From Mya arenaria (Eukaryota), in the NCBI RefSeq assembly GCF_026914265.1, contig NC_069127.1:1617682-1681681 (forward strand): a stretch of DNA of 64,000 nt, given 5' to 3'. Of this stretch, positions 27,319 to 48,700 are shown piece after piece (position 1 is the stretch's first letter; the number at the start of each line of letters is the position of its first letter). Below the pieces are notes generated by a model that saw nothing but the letters and a program-made list of their open reading frames with translations, was not told the origin of the DNA and did not search any database. A program made the translations under genes and the position numbers.

Positions 27319-27399
27319 GACGGCATAGTGTCGTTGCGCAAAAACATTAACGTTGGGCATATCTGGGCACACCTGTTGCCAGAAATGATACACTCACAG

Positions 27400-27866
27400 A
27401 AATGTCCATAACTCTGACTTGGACACACATTTTCAGTAAGGTCCATAACTCTGACTTGGACACACATTTTCATCAAGGTCCATAACTCTGACTTGGACAC
27501 ACATTTACAGTAAGGTCCATAACTCTGACTTGGACACACATTTACAGTAAGGTCCATAACTCTGACTTGGACACACATTTACAGTAAGGTCCATAACTCT
27601 GACTTGAACACACATTTTCATCAATGTCCATAACTCTGACATGGACACACATTTTCAGTAAGGTCCATAACTCTGACTTGGACACACATTTACAGTAAGG
27701 TCCATAACTCTGACATGGACACACATTTACAGTAAGGTCCATAACTCTGACTTGGACACACATTTACAGTAAGGTCCATAACTCTGACTTGGACACACAT
27801 TTTAAGCAAGGTCCATAACTCTGACTTGGACACACATTTTCAGCAAGGTCCATAACTCTGACTTAG
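27400..27866. repeat. 37-bp minisatellite (about 13 units; ggtccataactctgacttggacacacattttcagtaa)
   Basis: The repeat lies in the intergenic region. The ORFs at 27267..27578, 27542..27763 and 27802..28026 are repeat artefacts. Confidence 0.95.
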
Positions 27867-29157: not shown

Positions 29158-29701
29158 TAAACATCAGGATTAATCCTAAAATCAGGATTTAGGGCTTTTA
29201 ACTTCAGGCTATTGTACTGTTGTAAAGATTATTCTTATGCTCGGGTATCTGCATCAAAAACGGAAGGAAGTATCTTGAAACGACTATAATGACATTTTGA
29301 AAAGCCCCGTAACTCTGCTTATGGCATGAATCCCTCGTACTCAAACAGACCCCGTACATGTTTCAGGGTTTACCATTATCTGCTGTTAGACCCCCCACCC
29401 ACCTAATACAGGTTTTGGCGGAGACAATACGCCCATGCTATGATGTGTAGCAAGTTTCGTAACTCTGGTTTTAATATTTGTTGAGTGTTTGCCCTTTGCA
29501 TACATGTAGTTAACCGTTAAAGTAGCCGCGATGGCGTCCACTTACGGGACTATTGGTTGATCCTTCCTTGCATTATGGATCATTCAGAAGCTACTTGGTG
29601 TAAAAATAGTCCAAAATAAACAAACGTCGCATGAATCTGTATTTATGCATGTAATTTGCAAAAATCGCCAACAAGATAACAGTCAGACATAAACGAGCCC
29701 G

Positions 29702-29923
29702 CTATCCGACTAGCTGTGAGTTCGAGGGCGTCATGGTATCCGTGGTGATTTTAAAGTTCCGGAAATACGTGTACGTGTCGTGTGGGCTGGCCCAAGAGCT
29801 GTCGCCGCCCCCGAAGAACGTGGAGAAGAAGAGCCCGTCTATGTCGAAGCCCGTGTTGTCCCGCATTATGATGTCAGTCACATGCACCTCCGCGTGCCCG
29901 TCCACCCACAGCTTGATGTAGCC
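29702..29923 (-). CDS. lyase-like gene exon 6 (terminal), stop at 29702-29704
   Basis: Acceptor tttctccacag|GGC. Peptide GYIKLWVDGHAEVHVTDIIMRDNTGFDIDGLFFSTFFGGGDSSWASPHDTYTYFRNFKITTDTMTPSNSQLVG*. Confidence 0.7.
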   Translation of the reverse strand, partial: GYIKLWVDGHAEVHVTDIIMRDNTGFDIDGLFFSTFFGGGDSSWASPHDTYTYFRNFKITTDTMTPSNSQLVG

Positions 29924-32900
29924 CTGTGGAGAAATGTAGTAGTTACATGGTTAAATACATTTTAACACAAACATCGTTACGCTATTAACACATCTATGGT
30001 TTTAGTAGTATATCTCGTAGTTTGTATCCAAAACTTCATAATATATATCAAATGTGTCGAGTGCTTTACATGTACACTCAAAGTATAAGGTTTTCATGAA
30101 TACTGTTATAGAGAGGTTGGCAAAACTCGAACAAGTTCATCACTACTCTCATATACGGAGCTACTGAATTAGAAAGTACTTGACAATGGCACCTTTTGTC
30201 CCGAGTGTGCATTAAGGTGGACCTCTTGGCGGATGTGATGCCATTTGTGGTGGTGGAAGCGCCAGGCACCCCGCCCAAGCTCGATGCCCGTGGAGGGCGT
30301 GCAGTGCACGTGCATGTAGGAGGCAGTGCTTGAGTGGTCGTACTTGCCGCACCATGTGTCGAAGGACGGTTCTTGGTTATGGGTCACGTACGTGTACACC
30401 TGAAAAGTTGGAACGCGCCATGTTTTAGGTCCTGTGTTTCTGGGACCGGGGCCTTTCTGGATGGTAAGAATGCGTCTTTTTGACTTAATTGGACATTCAA
30501 AATTTGCGTATAAATTAAAAAAATGACTTATAAAGTAGACAGAAAAAAAACCAGGTGGGATAGCCTTTGTTTCTTAAAGAGAACAACAACTCTTCAATTA
30601 CATATAAAAAGAGAATTGGTTGGCCAACTTTTATTCGTCGGTTTCTTTTTTCAAACTTAAGATTGGGAAATTTATTTTTACAGTTGATTTTTTATATATA
30701 TATATTGGCATTAGGAATTCTGCCCCAAATTGCTCAGAACAAGATTGACGTCTTATTCAAATGACAGTTCATCGAAGGACAAGGCTAGTAGCAAACACAA
30801 CCATTTAGTCATTCATGCTGTTCCATGTTCCATCACCTAATATAACATATCACCTCGCCATCCCCTAGCGGCCGCCACATGAGCCGTGTTGAGAAGCAGG
30901 TGTCCTTTATCCGACCGCCTGAGCAGTCACGGGTGCCGCCCCACAGTCCGGGCAGCTTGCCCCCACGATTCCAGCTAAACGAGTCTGGGAAATACACCTG
31001 CAATTGTGAACATATTTATTTACTGGTGGAATGCTTTGATTTACTTTTAAATACATGTACGCTGTTCATGTACATTGATTTTGTTCGAGTCTTTGTTTCA
31101 CAAACCTAAGACCTAAATTGGTAGGATGGAAGAGCCTTGTGTTCGATTAGCGCTTGTTTGAATAACGGTCGATGCGTTCTTGTATATACTTCAGAAAAGC
31201 ATGATAAGTCAGAAGTCACTGGAATACTCGAGTAACAACTAATGTAGTTAATTCTCGTGGATAGCGTTGATAAATACGGTATGTCGTGGTTGGTCGTGTC
31301 GTGGTTGGTCGCGTACTCTTCCCGTTCTCAAGTGTGTGGATGGTGTGGGTATGTCGTGGTTGGTCGCGTACACTTTCCGTACTCGAGTGTGTGGATGGTG
31401 TGGGTATGTCGTGGTTGGTCGCGTACTCTTCCCGTTCTTGAGTGTGTGGATGGTGTGGGTATGTCGTGGTTGGTCGCGTACTCTTCCCGTTCTTGAGTGT
31501 GTGGATGGTGTGGGTATGTCGTTGTTGGTCGCGTACACTTCCCGTTCTTGAGTGTGTGGATGGTGTGGGTATGTCGTGGTTGGTCGCGTACACTTCCCGT
31601 TCTCGAGTGTGTGGATGGTGTGGGTATGTCGTGGTTGGTCGCGTACACTTCCCGTTCTCCAGTGTGTGGATTGTGTGGGTATGTGGTGGTTGGTCGCGTA
31701 CTCTTCCCGTTCTCGAGTGTGTGGATGGTGTGGGTATGTCGTGGTTGGTCGCGTACACTTCCCCTACTCGAGTGTGTGGATGCTGTGGGTTTGTGGTGGT
31801 TGGTCGCGTTCTCTTCACGTAGTCGAGTGTGTGGATTGAGTGGGTATGTCGTGGTTGGTCGCGTACTCTTCCCATTCTCGAGTATGTGGATGGTGTGGGT
31901 ATGTGGTGGTTGGTCGCGTACACTTCCCGTACTCGAGTGTGTGGATGGTGTGGGTATGTCGTGGTTGGTCGCGTACACTTCCCGTACTCGAGTGTGTGGA
32001 TGGTGTGGGTATGTCGTGGTTGGTCGCGTACACTTCCCGTTCTCGAGTGTGTGGATGGTGTGGGTATGTCGTGGTTGGTCGCGTACTCTTCCCGTTCATG
32101 AGTGTGTGGATGGTTCTCGAGTGTGTGTATGGTGTGGGTATGTGGTGGTTGGTCGCGTACACTTCCCGTTCTCGAGTGTGTGGATGGTGTGGGTATGTCG
32201 TGGTTGGTCGCGTACTCTTCCCGTTCTTGAGTGTGTAGATGGTTCTCGAGTGTGTGGATGGTGTGGGTATGTCGAGGTCGGTCGCGTACTCTTCCCGTTC
32301 TCGAGTGTGTGGATGGTGTGGGTATGTCGAGGTCGGTCGCGTACACTTCCCATTCTCGAGTATGTGGATGGTGTGGGTATGTGGTGGTTGGTCGCGTACT
32401 CTTCCCGTTCTTGAGTGTGTGGATGGTTCTCTAGTGTGTGGATGGTGTGGGTATGCCGAGGTCGGTCGCGTACTCTTCCCGTACTCGAGAATGTGGATGG
32501 TGTGGGTATGTCGTGGTTGGTCGCGAACTCTTCCTTTTCTTGAGTGTGTGGATGGTTCTCGAGTGTGTGGATGGTGTGGGTATGTCGAGGTCGGTCGCGT
32601 ACTCTTCCCGTACTCGAGTGTGTGGATGCTGTGTGTATGTCGAGGTCAGTCGCGTACACTTCCCATTCTCGAGTATGTGGATGGTGTGGGTATGTGGTGG
32701 TTGGTCGCGTACCCTTCCCGTTCTTGAGTGTGTGGATGGTTCTCGAGTGTGTGGATGGTGTGGGTATGTCGAGGTCGGTCGCGTACTCTTCCCGTACTCG
32801 AGTGTGTGGATGGTGTGGGTTTGTGGTGGTTGGTCGCGTACACTTCCCGTTTTCGAGTGTGTGGATGGTGTGGGTATGTCGAGGTCGGTCGCGTACTCTT

Positions 32901-34410
32901 CCCGTTCTCGAGTGTGTGGATGGTGTCGGTATGTCGTGGTTGGTCGCGTACACTTCCCGTACTCGAGTGTGTGGATGGTGTGGGTATGTCGTGGTTGGTC
33001 GCGTACTCTTCCCGTTCTCGAGTATGTGGATGGTGTGGGTATGTGGTGGTTGGTCGCGTACACTTCCCGTTCTCGAGTGTGTGGATGGTGTGGGTATGTC
33101 GTGGTTGGTCGCGTACACTTCCCGTACTCGAGTGAGTGGATGGTGTGGGTATGTCGTGGTTGGTCGCGTACTCTTCCCGTTCTCGAGTGTGTTGATGGTG
33201 TGGGTTTGTGGTGGTTGGTCGCGTTCTCTTCACGTAGTCGAGTGTGTGGATGGTGTGGGTTTGTCGTGGTTGGTCGCGTACACTTCCCGTACTCGAGTGT
33301 GTGGATGGTGTGGGTATGTCGTGGTTGGTCGCGTACTCACCTCGTACTTATGCAACTCGTACACGAATGTGAGGAGGGTGTGTCTATATGGTGGTTTGTC
33401 GTATACTTTCTCCGTTATTGTACAGATGGTGTTGTTATGACGTGGTTGGTCGGTTACTCACCTCGTACTCGAGTGTTAGTGTAGTGTAGGTATGTGAAGC
33501 CACGGAACTCGGCGTGCCGTAGAACTGGGCGCCCCTGTGGCGACCGCTCCCGGAGTAACTACCTGAAACATGTGTTATAAGTATTCATTTGTCAAGGAAA
33601 ATATGACTGTTCGTGACCGAGCTGGGTACTTAAAAGTTACTCAACGATACTGATAGCTAAATAGTAACTCTACGAGACAGGCATAACGACGTTGGACATG
33701 TCTCACGTTACATTAACTTTAAGGTGCATTAATTACTTCCATGAATATACCAGTTGCACCGTACCTTTTGCATAAAAGACCCTGAGGACGTACTGTCCGG
33801 AGTGCTCGGGGTCCTCTGCAAGTGTGAGCGAGTCGTCCGCGCCTATGCCAAACTTCCCCTGGGTGTCCGTCATGTGGAAGCCCTGCTGCAGTACGTCTGT
33901 GATGTCTTTGTTCGACGTCTCGTGGCTCCAGCTCCACAGCGTCGTGCCTTGAATGGTGCAGACAGTTGCCGTCAAAACTGGCTAACGTCGATACCCAAAG
34001 CACATGCATTTACGTTTAACATATCGCTTTAAAGTGATAATCGATTAGTGAGTTGTATTGTGGGTTCCCACGATGAAATGTAATCCTTATTGATACCCAT
34101 TCCAAAAAAAAAATACATCATAAAGGCCTCTCGGGTTCGATATGATGCAAACCTCGGCCGAGTGGTCCCAGGTTCGATACATTGCGGACCTCGGTCTACA
34201 AGTCGGACTTGTTTACCAACATCATAGAAACGATGGATACTGGGACAAAACTTCGTTCCACCGCTTGTAATAAACTTCAAACTAAACCACTATTGAATCG
34301 AATAAGTTAAATGCCACCAACACTGCTGGTTGTAACGCCAATAAGACTAGAAACTTACCATGCCCTCCACGCACCAATACAAACAACAGTATAAATTGAA
34401 ACTGCATCAT
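29702..34410 (-). CDS. secreted polysaccharide-lyase-like protein (resembles the PL14 / heparin-lyase-I-like Polysacc_lyase family; tentative), 6 exons, 312 aa
   Basis: The six exon models below sum to 939 nt with every junction in phase. The deduced protein is MMQFQFILLFVLVRGGH|VLTATVCTIQGTTLWSWSHETSNKDITDVLQQGFHMTDTQGKFGIGADDSLTLAEDPEHSGQYVLRVFYAKG|GSYSGSGRHRGAQFYGTPSSVASHTYTTLTLEYE|VYFPDSFSWNRGGKLPGLWGGTRDCSGGRIKDTCFSTRLMWRPLGDGE|VYTYVTHNQEPSFDTWCGKYDHSSTASYMHVHCTPSTGIELGRGAWRFHHHKWHHIRQEVHLNAHSGQK|GYIKLWVDGHAEVHVTDIIMRDNTGFDIDGLFFSTFFGGGDSSWASPHDTYTYFRNFKITTDTMTPSNSQLVG*. It has an N-terminal signal peptide and a C-terminal FFGG motif. The W/G/H-rich core recalls mollusc PL14 alginate lyases and fungal/bacterial heparin-lyase-like proteins. 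The family call is made from memory, not from a search. Confidence 0.6.
30193..30399 (-). CDS. lyase-like gene exon 5
   Basis: Acceptor aacttttcag|GTG, donor CAAAAG|gtgcca. Peptide VYTYVTHNQEPSFDTWCGKYDHSSTASYMHVHCTPSTGIELGRGAWRFHHHKWHHIRQEVHLNAHSGQK. Confidence 0.7.
30854..30997 (-). CDS. lyase-like gene exon 4
   Basis: Acceptor ttcacaattgcag|GTG, donor GGCGAG|gtgata. Peptide VYFPDSFSWNRGGKLPGLWGGTRDCSGGRIKDTCFSTRLMWRPLGDGE. Confidence 0.7.
31280..33470. repeat. 2.2 kb satellite, 55-bp unit (about 40 units), inside intron 3 of the lyase-like gene
   Basis: The unit is ctcgagtgtgtggatggtgtgggtatgtcgtggttggtcgcgtacacttcccgtt. Two subfamilies are present (gtcgtggttggtcgcg versus gtcgaggtcggtcgcg), and some units carry a 22-bp internal duplication. 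It decays towards exon 3 (33462). All ORFs at 31216..33484 on both strands are artefacts. Confidence 0.95.
33462..33562 (-). CDS. lyase-like gene exon 3
   Basis: Acceptor tgtttcag|GT, perfect donor GAG|gtgagt. Peptide GSYSGSGRHRGAQFYGTPSSVASHTYTTLTLEYE. The downstream intron holds the 2.2 kb 55-bp satellite. Confidence 0.65.
33765..33977 (-). CDS. lyase-like gene exon 2
   Basis: Acceptor ttagccag|TT, donor AAAG|gtacgg. Peptide VLTATVCTIQGTTLWSWSHETSNKDITDVLQQGFHMTDTQGKFGIGADDSLTLAEDPEHSGQYVLRVFYAK. Confidence 0.65.
34359..34410 (-). CDS. lyase-like gene exon 1 (signal peptide MMQFQFILLFVLVRGGH)
   Basis: ATGATG start codons at 34410 and 34407, then a hydrophobic core, then a perfect donor G|gtaagt. 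A TATAAAT motif lies about 45 bp upstream on the minus strand at 34455-34461. Confidence 0.65.
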
Positions 34411-34930
34411 CGACAGATGACTTTAATTATGATTCGCCGCTGCAAAATGCTTTAATTTATATCTGAAGGAAAACTAGGCCAGAGAATAGGTGAGAAGTTC
34501 ATACGTAGAAGTACACCGTCTACGGCCCTATGGAAATAGATACGACACTACACTTATAGAATTTCTGAATGCTTAATATATCGCGTCCCTTTCGTCGTAC
34601 ATGTTCATTATTAATAAGTTAGTACCAACAGCCACTAGTTTTTTCTCCTTTAGATTGCGTATAGCAATCATTGGATTAACCAATCAATAATCATTTTTAC
34701 TAACTTTAACCAAACCAAAGAATTAGTCAGTTTTACTCAATTGTGGGTTATGTTATTGAAACAGTTATCAATGGCGGCCCAGAAAAGTGGCGCTTTTATT
34801 GGGACATTCCCTCCCCCTCGATATCCGAAACAAATATCCGGTGCTTTACTTGATACAGTGGTTCGGATCATGGTTCTAGAAAGAACAAGTAATACCAAGA
34901 TACATTGTGTTTGTATCAACAGGTTCTTGT

Positions 34931-35090: not shown

Positions 35091-36259
35091 TAAAAAAAAA
35101 ATAATAATAATAATTTCGAGGTTCAGTACAAGCCAAACCTATAACCGTTGCAACATGTGTAGCTGTAAAAGAAGTTTAGCAAAATTTACGAAAGATTTCA
35201 TTAGATTTCCAACAATAAAGCCTTTGCAATTTTTAAGAAATGTCTTTATACAAAATGAATGTTTTTGTGTCCAAATAGTCAGTTCTACCCAATCACCAAT
35301 GTTTTGAGGCTTCGCTACTTGGTAGAGAGCTATTTGCATTATTTAACCAGAAAATGATCTTAATCCACTTTTTTACATTATTTTATTGAAAATCTTTCAG
35401 GTTTGGAAAATAATATCAAGAACCTTCAAGACATTCTTGGGTAGGGAGTCTTGGACATTGTGACACAAAACAGTTATTTTGTCGACAGACTTTCCCTAGA
35501 AATTGCAAAATTAATGCTTTTTGTTCCTAGATCTGATCAAATATTCTTACGTAAAACTTGGTCAACCCCTTATTAGCCCAAAATATTTCGCAATTGATGT
35601 TTGGTTTAATGACGAAAAAAATTGTTCATCAAACCATACAAGACATGAATATTTAATACGTTTTAATGTTGGTCTCGCCGACCTACTTTTGCACTATGGA
35701 AAGCCATTAGATATAATATACACATGTATAAAGGACCTATCTCACGAGTGCACGTTAAAACTCAATAAACATTGCATGGCTCTTTGAAATATTTACAGCT
35801 CTATTTATAATGCTGTGAGAGAAAGAAACTGTATATCGAGGCCATTTTTCTCATTGATCAGTAGAACAATTGAATGATAACATGATACATTGTTAACGAT
35901 TGACGGTGTTCTTTGTAGTGCGCATTTAATACATAATAATTTGTAAACACGGAAAAATGGTTAAATTTCAGAATCATTCATGCCATGCTATAATACGCTT
36001 ATCAAGTTTAATAGAAGGATCTCTTAAGTTATATTTGGTGTTCGCACTTATTTGTGGGACAATGAAAATCGTGGAATTACTCCATTTACTATAGCTCCAT
36101 ATTATGTAGAAAAAATGTGACGGTGAATACAATATTTATTTTCATAGAGCATATTTTGTCAGTGTATGTGACTCGGTACAGTCGTTTTTTCATAGATCAC
36201 CCTGCCCTGTTCGCATGTGCGAAAAAACTACGATTGGCAGTTAAGGTCCCGTTTTTCTC

Positions 36260-39200
36260 AATAAGCACCGTTTCCCTTTTCTCCGTTAGCATCGTGTCTC
36301 TATTCTCCGTTAGCACCGTGTCCATTCTCCGTTAGCATCGCGTACCTATTGTCCGTTAGCACAGCACCGTGTCCCTATTGTCCGTAATCACCGTGTCCCT
36401 TTTCTCTGTTAGCACCGTGTCCCTATTGTCCTTAGCAACGTGTCCCTATTGTCCGTTGGCACCGTGCCCCTTTCTCCGTTAGCACCGTGTCCTTATTGTC
36501 CGTTGGCACCGTGACACTATTGTCCGTTAGCACCGTGTTCCTATTGTATGTAGGCACAGTGTCTCTATTGTCCGTTAGCACCATGTCCCTTTCTCTGTTA
36601 GCACCGTGTCCCTATTGTCGGTTGGCACCGTATCTCCATTGTCCGTTAGCACCGTGTTCCTATTGTCCGTAGGCATAGTGTCCCTATTGTCCGTTAGCAC
36701 CGTGTTCCTTTCTCTGTTAGCAACGTGCCCCTATTATCCGTTGGCACAGTGTCTCTATTGTCCGTTGGCACTGGTACCTATTGTCCGTTAGCACGGTGTC
36801 CCTGTTGTCCGATAGCACCGTGTCCCATTCTCCGTCAGCACGGTGTCCCTGTTGTCCGTAAGCACGGTGTCCCTTTCTCCGTTAGTACCGTGTCCCTGTT
36901 GTCCGTTAGCACCGTGTCCCTATTGTCCGTTGGCACCGTGCTGCTATTATCCATTGGAACCGTGCCCCCTATTGTTCGTTGGCACCGTGCCCCCTGTTTT
37001 CCGTTGGCACCGAGCCCCTATTGTACGTAAGAACCGTGTCCCTATTGTCCGTTGGCACTGTTTCCCTATTGTCCTTTAGCACCGTGCCCCTATTGTCCAT
37101 TAGCACCGTGTCCCAATTGTACGTTAGCACCGTGTCTCTATTCTCCGTTAGCACCGTGTTCCTCTTGTACGTTAGCACCGTGTCCCTGTTGTCCGTTAGC
37201 ACCGTGTCCCTGTGTTTCCGTTGGCACCGAGCCCCTATTATCCGTTAACACCGTGTCCCTATTGTCCGTTGGCACCGTGCCGCTATTATCCGTTGGCACC
37301 GAGCCGCTATTATCCGTTTGTACCGTGCCCCTATTGTACGTAAGCACCGTGTCCCTATTGTCCTTTGGCACCGTGACGCTATTATCCGTTGGCGCCGTGC
37401 CCCCTGTTTTCCGTTGGCACCGAGCCCCTATTGTCCGTTGGCTCCGAGACCCTATTGTCCGTTGGCACCGTGCCACTATTATCCGTTGGCACCGAGCCGC
37501 TATTATCCGTTGTCACCGTGCCCCTATTGTCCGTTAGCACCGTGTCCCTATTGTCTTTTGGCACCGTGCCGCTATTATCCGTTGGCACCGTGCCCCCTGT
37601 TTTCCGTTGGCACCGAGCCCCTATTGTCCGTTAGCACCGTGCCGCTATTGTCCGTTGGCACCGTGCCGCTATTGTCCGTTGGCACCGAGCCGCTATTATC
37701 CGTTGGCACCGAGCCGCTATTATCCGTTGTCACCGTGCCCATATTGTCCGTTAGCACCGTGTCCCTATTGTCCTTTGGCACCGTGCCGCTATTATCCGTT
37801 GGCACCGTGTCCCCTGTTTTCCGTTGGCACCGAGCCCCTGTTGTCCGTTAGCACCGTGTCCCTATTGTCCGTTGGCACCATGCCGCTATTATCCGTTGTC
37901 ACCGTGCCCATATTGTCCGTTAGCACCGTGTCCCTATTGTCCTTTGGCACCGTGCCGCTATTATCCCTTGGCACCGTGTCCCCTGTTTTCCGTTGGCACC
38001 GAGCCCCTGTTGTCCGTTAGCACCGTGTCCCTATTGTCCGTTGGCACCATGCCGCTATTATCCGTTGGCACCGAGCCGCTATTATCCGTTGTCACCGTGC
38101 CCCTATTGTACGTTAGCACCGTGTCCCTATTGTCCTTTGGCACCGTGCCGCTATTATCCCTTGGCACCGTGTCCCCTGTTTTCCGTTGGCACCGAGCCCC
38201 TGTTGTCCGTTAGCACCGTGTCCCTATTGTCCGTTGGCACCATGCCGCTATTATCCGTTGGCACCGAGCCGCTATTATCCGTTGTCACCGTGCCCCTATT
38301 GTACGTTAGCACCGTGTCCCTATTGTCCTTTGGCACCGTGCCGTTATTATCCGTTGGCACCGTGCCCCCTGTTTTCCGTTGGCACCGAGCCCCTATTGTC
38401 CGTTAGCACCGTGTCCCTATTGTCCGTTGGCACCGTGCCGCTATTGTCCGTAGGCACCGAGCCGCTATTATCCGTTGGCACCGAGCCGCTATTATCCGTT
38501 GTCACCGTGCCCATATTGTCCGTTAGCACCGTGTCCCTATTGTCCTTTGGCACCGTAACGCTATTATCCGTTGGCACCGTGTCCCCTGTTTTCCGTTGGC
38601 ACCGAGCCCCTGTTGTCCGTTAACACCGTGTCCCTATTGTCCGTTGGCACCGTGCCGCTATTATCCGTTGGCATCGAGCCGCTATTATCCGTCGGCACCG
38701 AGCCGCTATTGTCCGTTGGCAACGTGCCCCCTATTGTCCGTTTGCACCGTGTCCCTATTGTCCTTTGGCACCGTGCCCCCTATTGTCCGTTAGCACCGTG
38801 TCCCTGTTGTCAGTTGGCACTTAGCCCCTATTGTCCGTTAGCATGATGTCCGTTTCTCCGTTAGCACCGTGTCCGTTTCTCCGTTAGCACCGTGCCCCTT
38901 TCTCCGTTGGCACCGTGCCCCTATTGTTCGTTAGCACCGTGTCCCTATTGTCCGTTAGCACCGTGTCCCTATTGTCCGTCGGCACCGTGCCCACTATTGT
39001 TCGTTGGCACCGTGCCCCCTGTTTTCCGTTGGCACCGAGCCCCTGTTGTCCGTTAGAACCGTGTCCCTATTGTCCGTTGGCACTGTGTCCCTATTGTCCT
39101 TTAGCACCGTGCCCTTATTGTCCATTAGTACCGTGTCCCAATTGTCCGTTAGCACCGTGTCTCTATTCTCCGTTAGCACCGTGTTCCTCTTGTCCGTTAG

Positions 39201-40315
39201 CACCGTGTCTCTATTGTCCGTTAGCACCGTGTCCCTATTCTCTGTTAGCACTGTATCCCTATTGTCCGTTGGCACTGTGTCCCTATTGTCCGTTAGCACC
39301 GTGTCCCTATTCTCTGTTAGCACTGTATCCCTATTGTCCGTTGGCACTGTGTCCCTATTGTCCGTTAGCACCGTGTCCCTATTCTCTGTTAGCACCGAAA
39401 GTCTATGTTCGTACGCACCGTGTTCCTATTGTCGGTATGCACAATGTCTCTTTTGTCCGTTAGCACTGTGTCCCTATTTCCGTTAGTACCGTGTCCCTAT
39501 TCCCTGTTAGCACCATGACTCTATTGTCCGTAAGCACCGTGTTCCTATTGTCCGTAGGCACAGTGTCTCTATTGTCCGTTAGCACTGTGTCCCTATTGTT
39601 TGTTAGCACCATTTCCCTATTCTGCGTAAGCACCATGCCCCTCTTATTGGTAAGCACCGTATCCCTATTCTCCGTTAGCACCCTGTCCCTTTTTTCCGTT
39701 CGCACCATATCCCTTTTTCTGTTAGCACCCTGTCCCTTTTTCCGCTAGCACCCTGTCCCTTTTTTCCGTTAGCACCCTGTCACTTTTTTCCGTTAGCACC
39801 CTGTCCCTTTTTTCCGTTAGCACCCTGTCGCTTTTTTCCGTTAGCACCCTGTCCCTTTTTTCTGTTAGCACCCTGTCCCTTTTTTCTGTTAGCACCCTGT
39901 TCCTTTTTTCCATTAGCACCCTGTCCCTTTTATCGTTAGCACCGTGTCGCTTTTTCCATTAGCACTGTGTCTCTTCTCTGTTAGCACCGTGTCCCTATTG
40001 TCTGTTAGCACTGTGTTCCTATTATCCGTTAGCACCGCGTCCCTATTGTCCTTTAGCACCGTTTCCCTATTCTCCGTTAGCACCGTGCCCCTCTTGTTTG
40101 TTAGCACTGTATCCCTATTCTCCGTTACACCCTGTCCCTTTTTTCTGTTCGCACCATATCCCCTTTTCCGTTAGCACCCTGTCACTTTTTTCTGTTAGCA
40201 CCCTGTCCCTTTTTTCCGTTAGCACCGTGTCCCTTTTTTCCGTTAGCACCGTGTCCCTTTTTTCGTTAGCACAATGTCTCTTCTCTGTTAGCACCGTTTC
40301 CCTATTCTGCAGCAC
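36260..40315. repeat. roughly 4 kb satellite of 24-bp units (ccgttagcaccgtgtccctattgt) with a 193-bp (8-unit) higher-order repeat in its centre
   Basis: There are more than 160 units. In the central block (37300-38650) the units alternate among ccgttggcaccgtgccgctattat, ccgttggcaccgagcccctgttgt and ccgttagcaccgtgtccctattgt, giving a 193-bp periodicity that is visible in the ORF-track spacing. The distal part (39700-40310) shifts to 25-bp ccgttagcaccctgtcccttttttc units. All ORFs inside are artefacts. Confidence 0.95.
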
Positions 40316-40844: not shown

Positions 40845-42105
40845 GCGCATGTCTCCCCCATTGTGTGGTCGTAGGTGAGAAATAATCAATGATGGACATG
40901 AAATTTGTACTTCCTCCCTACCAAGTTTGGTGAACCTAGGTCAAACCATTCTCAAGATATTGAGCGGAAATGTTTTTTACATTGGGGGTCGCCGCGACCT
41001 TGACCTTTGACCTAGTGACCCCAAAAACAATAGGGATCTTCTACACCTCATGACCAACCTCCCTACCAAGTTTGGTGAACCTAGGTCAAACCGTTCTCAA
41101 GATTTTGAGCAGAAATGTTTTTTATATTGGTGGTCGCCGCGACCTTGACCTTTGACCTAGTGACCCCAAAAACAATAGGGATCCTCTACACCTCATGACC
41201 AACCTCCCTACCAAGTTTGGTGAACCTAGGTCAAACCGTTCTCAAGATTTTGAGCAGAAATGTTTTTTATATTGGGGGTCGCCGCGACCTTGACCTTTGA
41301 CCTAGTGACCCAAAAAACAATAGGGATCCTCTACACCTCACGACCAACCTCCCTATCAAGTTTGGTGATCCTAGGTCATGCGGTTTTCCAGTTATCGATC
41401 GGAAACGAACAAAGCATTCTCCTGATATTGCACGGAAATATTTTTTTACATTAGAGGTCACAGCGACGTTGACCTTTGACCTTGTGACCCCCCAAAATAT
41501 AGGAGTTTTCTAAACCTCATGATCAACCTCCCTACCAAGTTTGGTGAACCGAGGTCAAACCATTCTCAAGATATTGAGCGGAAATGTTTTTTACATTGGG
41601 GGTCGCCGCGACCTTGACCTTTGACCTAGTGACCCCAAAAACAATAGGGATCTTCTACACCTCATGACCAACCTCCCTACCACCAAGTTTGGTGAACCTA
41701 GGTCAAACCGTTCTCAAGATATTGAGCGGAAATGTTTTTTACATTGGGGGTCGCCGCGACCTTGACCTTTGACCTAGTGACCCCAAAAACAATAGGGATC
41801 TTCTACACCTCATGACCAACCTCCCTACCAAGTTTGGTGAACCTAGGTCAAACCGTTCTCAAGATTTTGAGCAGAAATGTTTTTATATTGGGGGTCGCCG
41901 CGACCTTGACCTTTGACCTAGTGACCCCAAAAACAATAGGGATCCTCTACACATCACGACCAACCTCCCTACCAAGTTTGGTGATCCTAGGTCATGCGGT
42001 TTTCCAGTTATCGATCGGAAACGAAGTGTGACGTACGGACTGACGGACTACCGGACTGACGGACAGGGCAAAAACAATATGTCTCCCCCAGAGAGGGGGA
42101 GACAT
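40845..42105. mobile_element. composite non-autonomous element: roughly 145-bp satellite-like array (8 units) + ACGG-like microsatellite + G5/C5 palindromic end (Helentron-associated, pearl/MgE/DTC84-like)
   Basis: The left boundary is gcgcatgtctccccca (40845). The array runs 40914-42030 with unit ctccctaccaagtttggtgaacctaggtcaaaccgttctcaagatattgagcggaaatgttttttacattgggggtcgccgcgaccttgacctttgacctagtgaccccaaaaacaatagggatcttctacacctcatgaccaac and is organised as [A A A B]x2. The microsatellite tacggactgacggactaccggactgacggac lies at 42032-42065. The right end is the perfect palindrome atgtctcccccagagagggggagacat (42079-42105). Confidence 0.65.
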
Positions 42106-42509: not shown

Positions 42510-42785
42510 CTATGAGACGGCCGTGGATGTGACGGGAATGACAACACCCTGTTTTTGTAGGACCCGTAAAACTTCAAGGATAGAATCCAGTTCCACGCGA
42601 AACCGCTGTATCTCGTTGTTCTTTGTCTCCACGATGTCCCGCCATTTGTCCACCTCACGTTCAGTTTCTATAGACGCTGCCTGTCGAGAGTTGAGTATAA
42701 TGTCCTGCAGCTCTTTCTCACGTTGTGCATGCTTAGTTTCTATCTGCACTATTTTCTCTTGTAAAGACTCAAAATGCCGCATTTC
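42510..42785 (-). CDS. coiled-coil gene terminal exon: EMRHFESLQEKIVQIETKHAQREKELQDIILNSRQAASIETEREVDKWRDIVETKNNEIQRFRVELDSILEVLRVLQKQGVVIPVTSTAVS*
   Basis: Acceptor tctctttgtgtttcgcag|GAA. The stop codon TAG lies at 42510-42512 on the minus strand. Confidence 0.8.
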   Translation of the reverse strand, partial: EMRHFESLQEKIVQIETKHAQREKELQDIILNSRQAASIETEREVDKWRDIVETKNNEIQRFRVELDSILEVLRVLQKQGVVIPVTSTAVS

Positions 42786-45700
42786 CTGCGAAACACAAAG
42801 AGAAAAATATGAATTTGTTACTTGGCTACATACTTTATAATTATGTGCACTTAAGAGGCCAGAATGTGAGATTGTGAGCATCTTCTTAAATATTGTAACC
42901 AATATGTGTCTATAAAAATCATGGTATAGGCTGGATCCTGAGCTATTGGAATGGAACATGCACATGTGTTACTTACTAAACAGAGGACTGTGAAGCCAAC
43001 ACAAATGCTCGTCTGTGGTTTTCAGTTGCGAGGGCATAACTGAACAATGATTAAAGACAGAGTGATGGCCCTTGCTATACATGTGTGTACTGTCTTTCTC
43101 ATGTTGACAGCAATGTTAGCAATATGTCTAGCAAACTCCAGTTGAATAATTCAAACAATTTTTATTGATGGCCATAGTTAAAGTGTTTGCACAACAACCT
43201 CAACAATAGACAGACATGACAATATCGCCAACTTTTAAAAAACAGACAAGATAAACATAGCAATATTTAAAACATGAAATTGATATTGTTTGACATATTT
43301 TTCATTATTTTATTTTTTTTATGTATTTTATACATACACTTACTGGAGCTATGAATAAATAAACACTATAAAGTCTTACCGGAGTGTGAGATTTCTTTGC
43401 CTCTTTGAGGTCCCTGTGTAATGATTTGAGTGTTTCCTCAAGACGTGTCTGTTTGATGCGCAACATAGACGCTGCCTCTGCCTCAACCTCGAGTCGAGCT
43501 TGCTGCTCTCTCAGGTGTTTGATCATCACCTAGACGACAAAGAGGGTAAAAAATGTATGAAATATCCTAATGAACTACTGAAGATATGAATCTAATGCTA
43601 GGAGTATCTGAGGAGCTAGAGTTCTACTTTTATCCAGCTGAGGTAGATCAAGAAATCAGTTAATAAAACCAGGGCAGTAGTATCATCACAATTTACATAA
43701 CAGTCGAAAGAGGATGACCTTCATGAGAATGACTTTACAAATTTCTAGACAAAGAAATAAAAAAAGTTAAAAGAGTATTAGACAAAAAGAATACTTTTAA
43801 CTGACAAACGCTATGCACAAATATGAAACTAATTCTTAAACCACAACCTACCTCCTGAGTATCAACCTTGCTCTGCAATTCCGCCATCCTTGACGTTGAG
43901 TGTTCCAGGGCGTTCTGGGCAAGGAGACGCTTCACTTCCTGTTGGTGGGAGTCTCGCTGCTGTTCAAGACGTTCCTCGTATGCCTCCTGTGTACGGCGGA
44001 GTGCAGCCTCCCCCTCTGCCACAGCACGCTGGATGTCCACCCGACACTGACTAACTTCCAACTGTACCCGCTCCACCTGACAAATCACAAGCATAGTTTG
44101 TATGAACAATGATATCCAATAGTGCCCAGTTTACAATTTGCCCCAATATATTATTTTTTTCATTATATCAAGTATGCAATAAAAACAAAGAAATAAAGCA
44201 TTAATGTCACAATATCAAATGTGTTGATCGAAAGTTCTTAATTCATAATCCTAACTGTTCCCTCAGGCTATTGCTATATAAACACTATGTCTATAAACAC
44301 ACTATGGCTATATACAGGCATACATATCATAGACACTCATAACATATTTTTTGCACAGAATTTCATGTCCTTTCCATTGATATTTTACATCATAATAACA
44401 TTCATACCTTCATTTTGAGGTTATCATTTTCCTGGATGACCTCAGATATGTGTGTGTCCTGGAAGACCTTGGCGTCATATGTCTTCCCCTGTAGTTCAGA
44501 CGCCGAGGGAAGGGACGTAAACTCAGCTGCATCATCTCCCTTGTTACCTCCCCTGGCACCCAGCTTCCCGCGCTTGCCTGACAAATACACAGATAAAGTG
44601 TTATGATCATGCAACAACAAGGTTAGTAATGAATAACCAGCATGGTTGTTAAGAAAACAACTTCTGTAGTAAACAAAATTGACCAATTCAATAAGTACAT
44701 ACAGAAAGCTCACACCAGTGTCTGTTGGATTGTTTTTAGAACTTTAGAACTTAGAATCATTATTCCTTATCGCTCATTTATAAAGTAAATCATCTTTAAA
44801 ATTGGTAAAATCTATAATCTATATACCGGTCATCCGAATTAACCAAACTTTCTGTCATGTTTACCATTATCGCCAGTGATCGCGAGTTGTCTGTCCTTGC
44901 GTAGGCGATCTAGAGATTTCTGAAGGACCTGAATGTCATGGTCCTTACCCTCCACCTCCAACTGGAGAGTCTTAACAAGGGCACGCAACTCTGCCTCCGT
45001 CTCCTTTGTCTGAGACTCTGCTTTAGCTGCAAAGAAAGCCAAATAAACTGAAAATATTTTAACAACAGCAGTCATAGACTGTCATATCCCCAGCAGAATG
45101 AAGGATAGGATCCAGTTCACCTTTTGTTAAAGGATACCAATGAACAATAACAAAGCGCAATTACTCACAAAAAATGCATGCAGCAAAAGTTATGGTTCCT
45201 GTGCACTGCACTTCTCCTCAATTTGATCTATCTGTATGTGAAGTCAATTTCTTGAAGGCTATGTATGAAATTTAACAAAGCCCAATAACTAAAAACTAGA
45301 GCTGTCACAGGAGTGACGAATACCCCCAAATGCCGCCTGGACACATGAATGGCAAACCATTCCTTTGAAAAGAGGCCATAACTCCAAGGTTACTGCACAC
45401 TGCATCTTCTTTTATCATGCATGTCTTGTTTTATTTAAATCTGTTGAGTAATTTAGAAGTTACACTGCTGACAAGAAAAACTCTCCTTTCATGAGTTATC
45501 GTCCGGAAACCGTTTTTCTATTTTTAGTAACAGTGACCTTGACCTTGGCCCCACCAGCCCCAACATCGAACTTGACCTGTACATGTATCTTCTGATGTTA
45601 CACCTGTGTACCAAAAATTGTTCAAATCTGTCTAGCCTTTCATGAGTTATCGTCCGGAAACCGTTTTTCTATTTTTAGTAACAGTGACCTTGACCTTGGC

Positions 45701-48700
45701 CCCACCAGCCCCAATATCAAACTTGACCTGTATCTTCTGATGTTACACCTGTGCACCAAAAATTAATCAAATCTGTCTAGCCTTTCATGAGTTATCGTCT
45801 GGAAACCATGAAAACCGACAGACCGACCGACCGACAGACCGACCGACAAGCTCACTCCTATATACCCCCTCAAACTTCGTTTGTGGGGGTATAAAAATGC
45901 AGCTAGAGTTGGAGTTTTTGTGCACTGCACTTTTCTTCAAAGAAATATACCTGAATATAAAGTTTGAAGTCAATTCCTCAAAGACTTTTCGAGTTATGCT
46001 CCAGACAAAAAAATAAGTATGAAAATTAACAAAGGGCAATAATTTTAAAACAAATGCCAGCAGAATTATGTTTTTTGTGCACTGGACTTATCCTTTATGA
46101 GATCTCTCTCCATATGGAGTTTGAAGTCAATACCTGAAACACTTTTCAAGTTATTCTCCAGACAAGATTGCCTGGATGACTCACTTACCTACCATTACTA
46201 TATCCCCTTTGCCCTTGGCAGGGGATAAAAATATTTATCAGTACCATTATTCAATACATTCATTTGCTTTAGGAATCCCACCCAAGACAGATTCATGCAT
46301 ATCTCCCTAAAATACATAAACATGAGTGGCAATGTTATACAATCTCAAACTCTAAAATGCATATTATGAGAGTCAGTTTTGTCAAACAACAATAAAAACT
46401 AGTTACACATATGGCTAGTCAGACTACAAAAACAGCTAACTTTAGCAAAGCCATGAAATTACCATCAGATTTCTTGGCCTTAGATGCCTCTGCAATGAGC
46501 CTGTCAACCTCAGTCTGAAGGTCGCGGATCTGCTGCTTGTATCTTTCCCGCACGCTCTCCAGCTCACGCTCCAGAGCCACAGAGTGGGTGTGCGGGTGAA
46601 CATGGTCGGCTTGGCCCTGGTAGATGGATAGCTGAATCTCAAGCTCCTTGATACGCTCCTCATACTGCACCTGGAATGTAAGACCCTGGGTTGAATACAT
46701 GGAGATATACAGATACAGGTCACCAAGCAAGATTTCATACTAACTCACATATCGCAGTCCATGGATGAACCCTTTTGCTTTTAGGAATACTCATTAAGCA
46801 AGGAAGAATCAACTGTACTATTTCTGAAAACATACCATTCAGACACGCACTATTCAGATGCAAGCTTGAATACCATGTTATCATATTGGGAAATTTTGCA
46901 TGAGCACAACACCCAGACACACTAAAATTTAACACTGAAATAAAGCTGAATTTAGTTATACATGTGATAAAACAGTACCATTACATTGTTTTATATAACT
47001 ATTATCTAGCCAAGATACCAACATTCCACTCTGACAGGTGGTATCTTTGCTTGACTCTGCCATGCAGTGTCTTCATCTCCTGGGGTTGTATTCAACATTG
47101 TTCTTGTCCTTGTTCTTTGACACGCCTCAGTAATTCCACTCAGTCCATTGGCCAGTTATTTTTACAATCCAATCAAAACACTTGGATTCTAATCCTAAAG
47201 CTGCACGCTCACAGATTGAACGTTTAGACAACTTTTTTACTTTTTGTCTTGGAATGAGCCAATTTTTGCGAAAATCCATGGAAACCAGTTACATAAGACT
47301 GCTGACAAAAAATTAGTTCGCAGATTTTTATATTAAAGTTCAAAAATTGATGTTTTATGCATTTTCCTTAAACTGTTAGTAAAGGTTTAAGCAATAAAAC
47401 ATAATTTTCGAACGGAAATATGAAAATCTAGGATCTGATTTTTTGTCAGCAATTTTATATCATTGGTTTGAAGATATTTACGCAAAAATTTGCTTTTTCC
47501 CAGACAAAAAATAAAAAAAATGTAAAAATGGAATATCTGTGAGAGGCAGCTTTAACATCAAATAAAAATCTAAGGTAGTTATTGAATATAGCCCCAGATC
47601 TAATTGTTAATTTCCATAGTGAAATAAGCTGGCGATCACATACCTTGACACTATGGTACTTCTGTTCCACTCCACGGAGCAAGGTGTTTGTCTCTGTGTC
47701 TTTGCCCTCCAACTCCTTTTCTAGCTTGCTAACCCTGCTCTCCAGTACCTCTGTGTATGCTGTCCGCTGGTTGGCCTGCACATAGTTATTACATGTATTG
47801 GGTTACTATAGATTTGAATGGATAAAGGGGTGGTTTAATGTTTGGTTTTAGGCTTTGTGACTCAAGAAAATTTGTTTTTTTTGTAGGGTAGGCATAAACT
47901 GTAATTATTTACAGTAGCATATAATAATATCCAGAAATTGTTGCAATAATCAGATAGATCTTTGATTTGCGTACAAAATGCAACAATCAACTACATGTTC
48001 AACATGGACGATCAAATTTGCCAAATGGAAGTATGCCCAATGGTATAGTACATCCTCTATCTCTGTTACCCCACACAGCCATGTGGGGACAAAAGGTATG
48101 GCATACCTGGTTGTTGGTGTCGCCTGCAGCTGCCGCAGTCATCATAAGTGATTGGAGGGAGTTTGGATTGCGACGCTTCAGGATTGCCTCCATCTCCTTC
48201 ACCTATACACAAGGACAACAAACAATTAACAAAAATTTTGTGCTAAAATCACAAAGGTACATTTCAGGCTTTTTCTCTCCAATATACTATCATACAGGCC
48301 AATGAAACTTTTATAAATTAATCTTAATGTTGTCCATTAAGTTATAAATTATAATACGTATTTTGAAGACTGTTTAAACCTGTGTTAAACGTTCAGCAAA
48401 TAACACCCTGTGGAAACATTTAGGGTTACCTGTCTCTGAAGGTCCTGTATTTTCTTGGTGTCTCCTGCTCTCTCCCGCGCCCGCACCTTGCTATCCTCCA
48501 CACGCTTACCAGACTGGTAATAGAATAAACATGTTAACACATGAACCCATCTCAATAACATGTGTTTGAACAAATCAAGAATTTCAGTTAAATGTGAAAT
48601 GTCAAAAACTAAATTGAAAGTCTAACATCCAAAATAAATATTGCATAAACTGATTTTTAAAATTGATTTTCTTACTACTCAGAAATATAATATCAATTAT

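Follow-up and report, generated by a model that had tools for sequence, protein, structure and literature searches.

A six-exon gene for a secreted-type family-14 polysaccharide lyase in Mya arenaria

Gene structure and the minisatellite in intron 3

The window analyzed here is a stretch of 64,000 nucleotides from Mya arenaria (NC_069127.1, positions 1,617,682 to 1,681,681). Its minus strand contains, from 34410 to 29702, a six-exon gene that is real and intact. The locus is very probably a single gene (RefSeq LOC128239073) for a secreted enzyme of polysaccharide lyase family 14 (PL14) with a mature form of about 284 residues. RefSeq labels the product "uncharacterized protein", and the 302-residue RefSeq protein maps exactly onto the window. 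A tblastn search for paralogues within the 64-kb window returned matches to the six exons only, and ARAGORN found no tRNA genes in the same interval.

The gene was rebuilt from the window sequence. The 312-residue model of the original prediction was reproduced exactly (34410-34359, 33977-33765, 33562-33462, 30997-30854, 30399-30193 and 29923-29702), and the motifs KLPGLWGG, CSGG, ELGRGAWRFHHHKWHH and FFGGG named there were all found in the rebuilt translation. All introns run from GT to AG, with phases 1,1,0,0,0. The splice sites, phases and signal-peptide exon of that model thus stood, but its exon-2 acceptor, and with it the length of the protein, had to be revised.

Two exon-2 acceptors, at 33947 and 33977, are both in frame. 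Exact spliced mapping of the RefSeq protein places the acceptor at 33947, and the resulting exon 2 has 183 nt, as it also has in Dreissena, Ruditapes and Mactra. In a tblastx comparison with Dreissena, homology began at 33948/33947, with nothing in the additional 30 nt, and the ten residues contributed by the 33977 acceptor (VLTATVCTIQ) had no counterpart in any homologue. The pyrimidine fraction of the acceptor context was 0.50 at 33977 versus 0.61 at 33947. As four orthologues and the RefSeq model agree on 33947, the protein has 302 residues and not 312, and the in-frame 5' extension of exon 2 (33948..33977, minus strand) is most likely intronic.

All six exons lie on the minus strand. Exon 1 (34359..34410, 52 nt) contains the ATG and the signal peptide MMQFQFILLFVLVRGGH(G) and ends in phase 1, exon 2 (33765..33947) starts the mature N-terminus with TTLWSWSHE, and exon 3 (33462..33562, 101 nt) runs from GSYSGSGRHRGAQFYG to LEYE; exons 1 and 3 follow from both the rebuild and the RefSeq protein mapping. 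Exon 4 (30854..30997, 144 nt) carries K126 (in GGKLPGLWGG), the C137/G140/C146 loop, and S148 and R150 (in CFSTRLMWR). Exon 5 (30193..30399, 207 nt) carries Y162 and Y164 (in EVYTYV), a loop of the heteroconch clade with C176 and C193, and the stretch from ELGRGAWRFHHHKWHH to VHLNAHSGQK. Exon 6 (29702..29923, 222 nt) extends from GYIKLWVDG through FFSTFFGGGDSSWASP to LVG, with the TAG stop at 29704-29702. An alternative exon-5 donor at 30223 (GAG/GTCCAC), which also gives 302 residues in an open frame, was rejected because it would remove VHLNAHSGQK. These final ten residues of exon 5 align with VHINTVGKTD of the sea-hare alginate lyase AkAly30 and occur in the RefSeq protein as well as in every orthologue.

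A pattern scan identified a TATAAA as putative core promoter (34456..34461, minus strand, 51 nt 5' of the ATG) and an ATTAAA as candidate polyadenylation signal (29470..29475, minus strand, 226 nt past the stop). On inspection, MMQFQFILLFVLVRGGHG shows a hydrophobic core, and its residues at -1 and -3 are small. The predicted signal peptide occupies its own exon, homology to mature AkAly30 begins directly after it, and in the AlphaFold model residues 3-12 form a helix at the N-terminus, where the pLDDT is lower. Secretion is plausible in view of the hydrophobic N-terminal exon and the same layout in the orthologues.

Intron 3 contains a minisatellite (31297..33338, minus strand), in which TRF detected about 37 copies of a 55-nt unit. 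Local alignment of the unit to the exon/intron junction and a blastn comparison of 33339-33461 with the array indicate that it derives from the 3' end of exon 3 and the intron-3 donor. Just one duplicated AGGTGAGT donor is left, at 33342. The array has very few stops in all three minus-strand frames, and the GenBank entry for the same locus, MAR_016716 (337 aa), wrongly translates it and leaves out exons 1-3 and 5. We rejected the coding reading and consider the array non-coding because of its 55-nt unit, the junction-derived copies, the lack of anything comparable in homologues, and the RefSeq model, which splices across it. Introns 4 and 5 were also considered as repeat or introner copies, and this was rejected because blastn found no other copy of either in the window.

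Family, fold and aligned residues

Judged by its sequence, the product is a secreted-type family-14 polysaccharide lyase. Enzymes of this type are well known from molluscs, and the gene is therefore an ordinary, expected and already annotated family member. The original assignment to the polysaccharide lyases was borne out by PF21294 (Polysacc_lyase_14), which matched with 233.8 bits against a cutoff of 27 (E=2.4e-69) over profile positions 3-215 of 215. With this E value and an identical public protein, the gene is far above chance expectation. PF14099, the profile proposed earlier for checking, was also matched above its cutoff, albeit marginally (31.2 versus 29.9 bits, E=2.6e-7) and far more weakly than PF21294. 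The protein is a superfamily relative of PF14099 (heparinase I PL13/glucuronan lyase PL20), not a member. The profile search gave no stronger match to an unrelated family, and the outcome named earlier as a refutation did not arise.

The top solved structure by sequence was AkAly30 from Aplysia kurodai (5GMT, E=8e-53), with an end-to-end alignment. The AlphaFold2 model (pLDDT 92.2, pTM 0.90) has the jelly-roll fold that had been anticipated, with 5GMT again as the best Foldseek match (E=2e-27, TM 0.74/0.83). Next in order came Aly36B (PL36), chlorovirus vAL-1 (PL14; structure 3A0N, E=7e-15), Trichoderma glucuronan lyase (PL20) and heparinase I (PL13); the PL20 and PL13 structures are distant fold matches with 9-11% identity.

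Residues K126, S148, R150, Y162 and Y164 of the Mya protein align with K99, S126, R128, Y140 and Y142 of AkAly30. The columns of AkAly30 K99, R128, Y140 and Y142 were invariant (54/54 aligned sequences), and the equivalents of S126, C115, C124 and G118 were found in 50/54 sequences each. All are kept in Mya, where C137, G140 and C146 correspond to C115, G118 and C124. Ogura (2009) and Qin (2017) reportedly described the catalytic roles of the Lys/Ser/Arg/Tyr/Tyr set in PL14 enzymes.

The polyM specificity of AkAly30 is governed by C115-C124 and G118 (PMC8618178). The glycine and the disulfide cysteines are, however, the consensus of the whole family, including cyanobacteria and fungi, and are therefore non-discriminating for polyM specificity. 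At the Gly118 position, Mya has Gly140, MyAly of the scallop Mizuhopecten yessoensis and Tegillarca have His, and vAL-1 has Tyr. We used a bulky His or Tyr at this position as a provisional marker of glucuronan lyases, drawn from two enzymes; Mya is without it.

The Mya protein and AkAly30 have several features in common. Both belong to the same Pfam family, share 38-39% identity over the whole mature protein and the jelly-roll fold, and have the K/S/R/Y/Y set and the Cys-x2-Gly-x5-Cys loop. In contrast, AkAly30 falls into the gastropod clade and Mya into the heteroconch bivalve clade, the 5-residue GENGEGAY insertion before the Cys loop of AkAly30 is missing in Mya, and Mya has an additional loop of about 14 residues (SFDTWCGKYDHSSTASYMHVHC) with two more cysteines. 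This insertion is common to the heteroconch clade and absent from every characterized PL14 enzyme. MyAly, a bivalve PL14 protein with 44% identity, similar size and a secreted architecture, has identical residues at the positions aligned to the AkAly30 catalytic set, but differs in its His at the Gly140 position and in lacking the heteroconch loop, and its clade link to Mya has a bootstrap value of just 24%. The chlorovirus CVK2 enzyme vAL-1 (3A0N/3GNE) has the same family and fold, and its residues line up at the K/S/R/Y/Y positions. It is, however, a viral cell-wall-degrading enzyme with about 20% identity, without the Cys loop and with the Tyr mentioned above. Full-length vAL-1 carries an additional N-terminal domain.

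Orthology, intron positions and origin

Mya arenaria has a public protein entry identical to the product, and identity was 79% to the Dreissena orthologue and 74% to that of Ruditapes. The gene is syntenic with the Dreissena orthologue, with CEP162 adjoining in both. In the window, the 3' exons of CEP162 form the upstream neighbor (42510..44076, minus strand), as identified by tblastx of the Dreissena locus against the window and Pfam annotation of the Dreissena neighbor. The conserved animal synteny around the gene shows that it is not a contamination. Synonymous sites were saturated, and we therefore report pN and pS instead of dN/dS; the pN of 0.16-0.24 against such sites points to strong purifying selection.

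The position of intron 1 (aa18, phase 1) was common to all seven other molluscs mapped, a comparison from which Tegillarca was left out. Exon 3 has equal length in Dreissena, and the intron-3 position is common to five bivalves. Intron 5 was seen only in Mya, exons 5 and 6 being contiguous in Dreissena, and in Haliotis and Sinanodonta the entire catalytic domain is a single exon behind the signal-peptide exon. In a neighbor-joining (NJ) tree, Mya grouped with Dreissena, Ruditapes, Mactra and Sinanodonta (bootstrap 75-98%), apart from the gastropods. All bivalves were monophyletic in this tree, but in just 47/200 bootstrap replicates. The descent of PL14 within molluscs, with introns in common, is clearly vertical.

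As stated in the original prediction, the exons are richer in GC than their surroundings (0.57-0.62 for exons 2-6 versus 0.38 for the flanks). Introns without the minisatellite have a GC of 0.34-0.41, and the GC3 of the Mya coding sequence is 0.749. The GC3 of PL14 genes differs between species (Mytilus 0.35, Mactra 0.39, Dreissena 0.63). The GC-rich exons look like GC3 codon bias in a vertically inherited mollusc gene, not like recent foreign origin.

It is possible, though doubtful, that the Mya gene or the molluscan PL14 family as a whole was acquired horizontally from a microbe and that the GC-rich exons are a trace of this event. The family is patchy in Metazoa: among animals, the named matches were limited to molluscs and the annelid Owenia, and fungi, ichthyosporeans and cyanobacteria came next. 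The one-exon catalytic domain of Haliotis and Sinanodonta would also suit a microbial source, as would the NJ tree, in which lophotrochozoans adjoin cyanobacteria. However, this last split had a bootstrap value of just 40%, and the presence of PL14 in ichthyosporeans, chytrids, Mucoromycota and Basidiomycota fits ancient vertical descent with losses equally well. Moreover, the mollusc part of the tree follows taxonomy, introns 1-3 are in common, and the gene sits in conserved animal synteny beside CEP162. The compositional argument is countered by the confinement of high GC to third codon positions (0.75) with introns at background, and by the variation of GC3 between species, which suggests codon bias. 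An ancient horizontal acquisition of PL14 is not demonstrated, the deep branches of the tree being weakly supported.

Catalysis and substrate

The 18-residue signal peptide on its own exon would send the protein into the secretory pathway, most plausibly to the lumen of the gut or the digestive gland. If the enzyme works like PL14 lyases of solved structure, the concave cleft of the beta-jelly-roll would bind a polyuronate chain, and the 1,4-glycosidic bond would be cut by metal-free beta-elimination. Arg150, Ser148 and Lys126 would neutralize and position the C6 carboxylate, and Tyr162/Tyr164 together with Lys126 may abstract H5 and protonate the leaving O4, yielding 4,5-unsaturated oligouronates.

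Which polysaccharide is cut can be stated as a rough split only. The protein has somewhat less than an even chance of being an endo-beta-1,4-glucuronan (cellouronate) lyase (EC 4.2.2.14) comparable to MyAly of the scallop and vAL-1 of the chlorovirus; its targets would then be walls or exopolymers that contain glucuronan and come from green microalgae, fungi or bacteria in the filtered food. MyAly is a PL14 cellouronate lyase (PMC12423752, citing Inoue 2021) and the sole characterized bivalve PL14. Its 44% identity to the Mya protein, the placement of all bivalves together in the NJ tree, and glucuronan lyase activity documented in two PL14 subfamilies argue for this reading, and freshwater orthologues fit a non-brown-algal substrate. 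The bivalve grouping nevertheless had the low bootstrap value given above, and Mya departs from MyAly, Tegillarca and vAL-1 at Gly140 and by the distinct loop insertion of its clade. A polyM-specific alginate lyase (EC 4.2.2.3) that digests the alginate of brown algae, as HdAly of abalone and AkAly30 of the sea hare do, is a minority possibility. AkAly30 is the top PDB match by both sequence and fold, and its determinants C115-C124 and G118 are all kept in Mya. Yet these determinants are family-wide, Mya lies within the heteroconch bivalves and not among the gastropods, and close orthologues occur in freshwater Dreissena (79% identical) and Sinanodonta, where brown-algal alginate is absent. 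Mya is also a suspension feeder, not a kelp grazer. In addition, the one bivalve PL14 that has been assayed, MyAly, is a glucuronan lyase. Some other acidic algal or bacterial polysaccharide is somewhat less likely as the substrate. The residues and tree considered here do not tie the Mya clade robustly to either alginate or glucuronan lyases, and the label "alginate lyase" or "digestive enzyme" is not established for this gene. A literature search on alginate lyase of the bivalve crystalline style found nothing relevant.

A jelly-roll protein that lacks catalytic activity or has a non-digestive function (a lectin or an immune factor, for example) is a very improbable reading, as is a decaying pseudogene. 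Many concanavalin-like folds are lectins, and such proteins were among the lower Foldseek matches. However, the open reading frame is intact, with canonical splice sites throughout and a TATA box, every residue aligned to the AkAly30 catalytic set is kept, and purifying selection is strong.

Few enzymes encoded by animals attack acidic polysaccharides of algae. The PL14 lyases belong to this small group, and almost all of their biochemistry comes from kelp-grazing gastropods. The close orthologues in an infaunal marine clam and in freshwater mussels therefore suggest a role of bivalve PL14 beyond brown-seaweed digestion. Bivalves may use the enzyme on microalgal or bacterial polyuronates, which would bear on sediment carbon turnover and on invasive Dreissena.

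A more speculative and rather improbable proposal is that the PL14 clade of Mya, Dreissena, Ruditapes, Mactra and Sinanodonta is a functionally distinct subfamily. The clade, which is conserved in marine as well as freshwater filter feeders, has its own loop of about 14 residues, and the two extra cysteines may staple this loop. In nature the enzymes would act on something other than brown-algal alginate or plain beta-1,4-glucuronan, with acidic exopolymers or uronans from the cell walls of microalgae or cyanobacteria as candidates. The family would have entered an early lophotrochozoan horizontally, and introns 1, 2, 3, 4 and 5 would have been gained stepwise towards Mya.

We also note that introns accumulate in a nested pattern towards Mya. 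The locus is a small case study in two respects, as its introns are nested on a dated phylogeny and its minisatellite was seeded where an exon meets its splice donor.

Gene model and intron-3 array

The minus strand of 29650-34450 was translated in three frames, and splice junctions were then located. This rebuilt exactly the 312-aa product of the original prediction, a six-exon gene for a polysaccharide-lyase-like protein (34410-34359, 33977-33765, 33562-33462, 30997-30854, 30399-30193 and 29923-29702, minus strand). All quoted motifs were found in the translation, and the splice sites were indeed canonical and the phases consistent (5/5 introns GT..AG; phases 1, 1, 0, 0, 0). The predicted exon-2 acceptor, however, was 30 nt off. 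The best database match to the predicted protein, the 302-aa Mya arenaria RefSeq protein of LOC128239073 (P0001), differed from it solely in missing VLTATVCTIQ, and exact spliced mapping of this protein to the window placed exon 2 at 33947-33765 (183 nt). The same mapping at the orthologous loci of Dreissena, Ruditapes and Mactra returned the identical exon-2 length, 183 nt, in each, tblastx similarity to Dreissena started at 33948/33947, and none of the homologues contained a counterpart of the 30-nt extension. The alignment with mature AkAly30, the PL14 alginate lyase of Aplysia kurodai, started at TTLWSW. These observations therefore support a predicted product of 302 aa, in which TTLWSW follows a putative signal peptide of 18 residues. 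The in-frame upstream AG at 33977 could be a minor alternative acceptor.

A TATAAA lies 51 nt upstream of the ATG and an ATTAAA 226 nt downstream of the stop. An alternative exon-5 donor at 30223 was rejected, as the residues it would delete are conserved. A tblastn search of the whole window with the product matched only the six exons and found no second copy of the gene.

Intron 3 (2464 nt) holds a 2-kb minisatellite (31297-33338; 55-nt unit, about 37 copies). Because the unit aligns across the exon-3/intron-3 boundary (junction 33425-33493), to the final ~31 nt of the exon and the initial ~24 nt of the intron, the array grew out of the exon/donor junction. A single duplicated AGGTGAGT donor survives, at 33342. 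Stops are scarce in the array, with only 1-3 per 680 codons in each of the three minus frames. The GenBank model of the locus, MAR_016716 (P0018, 337 aa; 29702-32350), therefore translates it as an N-terminal repeat region, while exons 1-3 and 5 are dropped. This model is an annotation artefact; of the two public models, only that of RefSeq is consistent.

Family, active site and substrate

The call of a PL14 / heparin-lyase-I-like jelly roll proved right on profile, sequence and structural grounds. Pfam returned PF21294 (Polysacc_lyase_14) with E=2.4e-69 and 233.8 bits against a cutoff of 27; PF14099 scored only just over its own cutoff. The top PDB sequence match was AkAly30 (5GMT; E=8e-53, aligned nearly end to end), followed by the chlorovirus PL14 enzyme vAL-1 and the PL36 enzyme Aly36B. 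An AlphaFold2 model built from a 50-sequence alignment was nearly all beta-strand (mean pLDDT 92.2, pTM 0.90). Foldseek against the PDB again ranked 5GMT first (E=2e-27, TM 0.74/0.83), ahead of Aly36B, vAL-1, the PL20 Trichoderma glucuronan lyase and PL13 heparinase I. The PL14 interpretation is thus supported, and neither of the outcomes that would have counted against it, a lack of any lyase-profile hit or a better match to an unrelated family, was seen. The locus itself is already known, as an "uncharacterised protein" in RefSeq and a PL14-domain protein in UniProt, and molluscan PL14 enzymes are well known.

In order to locate the active site, 54 family members were aligned, with AkAly30 numbering anchored on C115, G118 and C124. 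AkAly30 K99, S126, R128, Y140 and Y142 align with Mya K126, S148, R150, Y162 and Y164, and the Lys, Arg and both Tyr are invariant in 54/54 sequences. We take these five residues to be catalytic, as in structural work on vAL-1 and AkAly30. By analogy with these enzymes, the Mya protein would act by metal-independent beta-elimination, in which Arg, Ser and Lys may neutralise the carboxylate and Tyr and Lys may supply the acid-base chemistry. The anchor residues correspond to Mya C137, G140 and C146, and lie within the specificity loop of AkAly30 (review, PMC8618178).

Mya, Dreissena, Ruditapes, Mactra and Sinanodonta, here called the heteroconch clade, have in common an extra loop of ~14 residues (SFDTWCGKYDHSSTASYMHVHC; Mya residues ~168-196, exon 5, window ~30375-30290). 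The loop carries two additional cysteines, C176 and C193, and AlphaFold modelled a short helix in it (residues 173-180). It is missing from all characterised PL14 enzymes, and also from gastropod, scallop, fungal and cyanobacterial PL14 proteins.

Gastropod PL14 enzymes are polyM alginate lyases. The sole characterised bivalve PL14, MyAly of the scallop, cleaves cellouronate (beta-1,4-glucuronan; PMC12423752 citing Inoue et al. 2021) and shares 44% identity with the Mya protein. A glucuronan-type substrate is a tentative reading for Mya, held at less than even confidence. Against it, Mya has Gly at the AkAly30 G118 position, where the residue is His in MyAly and Tegillarca and Tyr in vAL-1; this argument is qualified by Gly being the consensus of the whole family at that position. 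PolyM alginate is somewhat less probable, and brown-algal alginate in particular sits poorly with the existence of freshwater orthologues (Dreissena, 79% identical; Sinanodonta, 50%). Some other substrate, neither glucuronan-type nor polyM alginate, is less likely still. Since Gly140, the freshwater orthologues and the heteroconch loop leave the substrate divided, we commit only to a putative secreted endolytic polyuronate lyase, and use the labels "alginate lyase" and "digestive" as hypotheses.

Descent and genomic context

Neighbour-joining trees with bootstrap placed Mya in a well-supported heteroconch clade. Support was 98% for Imparidentia, 88% for Imparidentia plus Sinanodonta, 75% for Mya plus Dreissena, and 24% for joining the clade to scallop and Tegillarca. 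Among animals, the named PL14 proteins in two database searches belonged to molluscs (gastropods, bivalves, a chiton) or to the annelid Owenia, and to no other group. Next in similarity, all at ~35-45% identity, were proteins of fungi (early-diverging and basidiomycete), ichthyosporeans and cyanobacteria. The grouping of lophotrochozoans with cyanobacteria had only 40% bootstrap support, so horizontal acquisition stands as a hypothesis for the deep origin. Within molluscs descent is vertical, since the tree mirrors taxonomy and species share introns.

The exons are GC-rich, as had been noticed (exons 2-6, 0.57-0.62; window mean 0.386). This is no evidence of foreignness, because the excess sits at third positions (GC3 0.749 versus GC2 0.459), the introns have background composition, and GC3 of orthologues spans 0.35 (Mytilus) to 0.63 (Dreissena).

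Intron positions were taken from exact spliced mappings at loci L001-L011. Intron 1 (aa18, phase 1) is present in all molluscs mapped. Intron 2 (aa79, phase 1) occurs in the chiton and in all five of the mapped bivalves that are not unionids, and not in Haliotis_ruf_1 or Sinanodonta_1; intron 3 (aa112, phase 0) is found in Mytilus, Ruditapes, Mactra, Dreissena and Mya. Intron 4 (aa160, phase 0; 30400-30853) is confined to Dreissena and Mya, and intron 5 (aa229, phase 0; 29924-30192) to Mya. Totals are therefore nested: one in Haliotis and Sinanodonta, two in the chiton, three in Mytilus, Ruditapes and Mactra, four in Dreissena and five in Mya. The Sphaeroforma gene is intronless. Stepwise gain towards Mya and repeated 3'-biased loss are both possible, and we prefer neither. 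Within the window, blastn found no other copies of introns 4 and 5.

Non-synonymous differences between Mya and Dreissena, Ruditapes and Mactra amount to 0.16-0.24 per site and synonymous sites have reached saturation, a pattern that indicates purifying selection. In Dreissena, CEP162 and the PL14 orthologue share a strand, with the orthologue downstream. Using tblastx of this Dreissena locus (L001), we found 3' exons of a CEP162 orthologue, a coiled-coil protein, at 44076-42510 (minus strand), with gene order and orientation as in Dreissena. Because this neighbour order is conserved, Mya PL14 is a resident animal gene and not contamination. FBXO32, the downstream neighbour in Dreissena, was not found within the window. 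Database searches returned one Mya PL14 locus. Copy number varies among species, with three loci in Dreissena (P0002, P0004, P0005), tandem copies in the chiton (L004, 6256-7832) and four Owenia paralogues on separate scaffolds (including P0121-P0123).

Other repeats in the window

The interval separating the PL14 promoter from the 3' end of CEP162 holds a 4-kb GC-rich minisatellite (36253-40308; 24-nt unit, ~169 copies) with many spurious ORFs and a negative plus-strand GC skew (about -0.20 to -0.29). Other minisatellites (unit lengths 23, 51, 40 and 37 nt) occupy 7707-9283, 13921-14966 and 27396-27864, and GC skew is strongly positive (0.28-0.57) in the intervals holding the first three of these. 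Ankyrin-repeat-like coding pieces lie among them (ORFs 9333-9677 and 15177-15329, plus strand), and the minisatellites are probably introns of an ankyrin-repeat gene.

A separate 69-nt repeat carries a tRNA T-arm-like GGTTCGATCC motif, but ARAGORN found no tRNA in the window. Tandem arrays of 145-151-nt units (40913-41994, 45485-45807, 56212-56414) show weak tblastx similarity to Dreissena L001 near 6151-6232. The 145-151-nt and 69-nt repeats are possibly SINE- or MITE-derived satellites.
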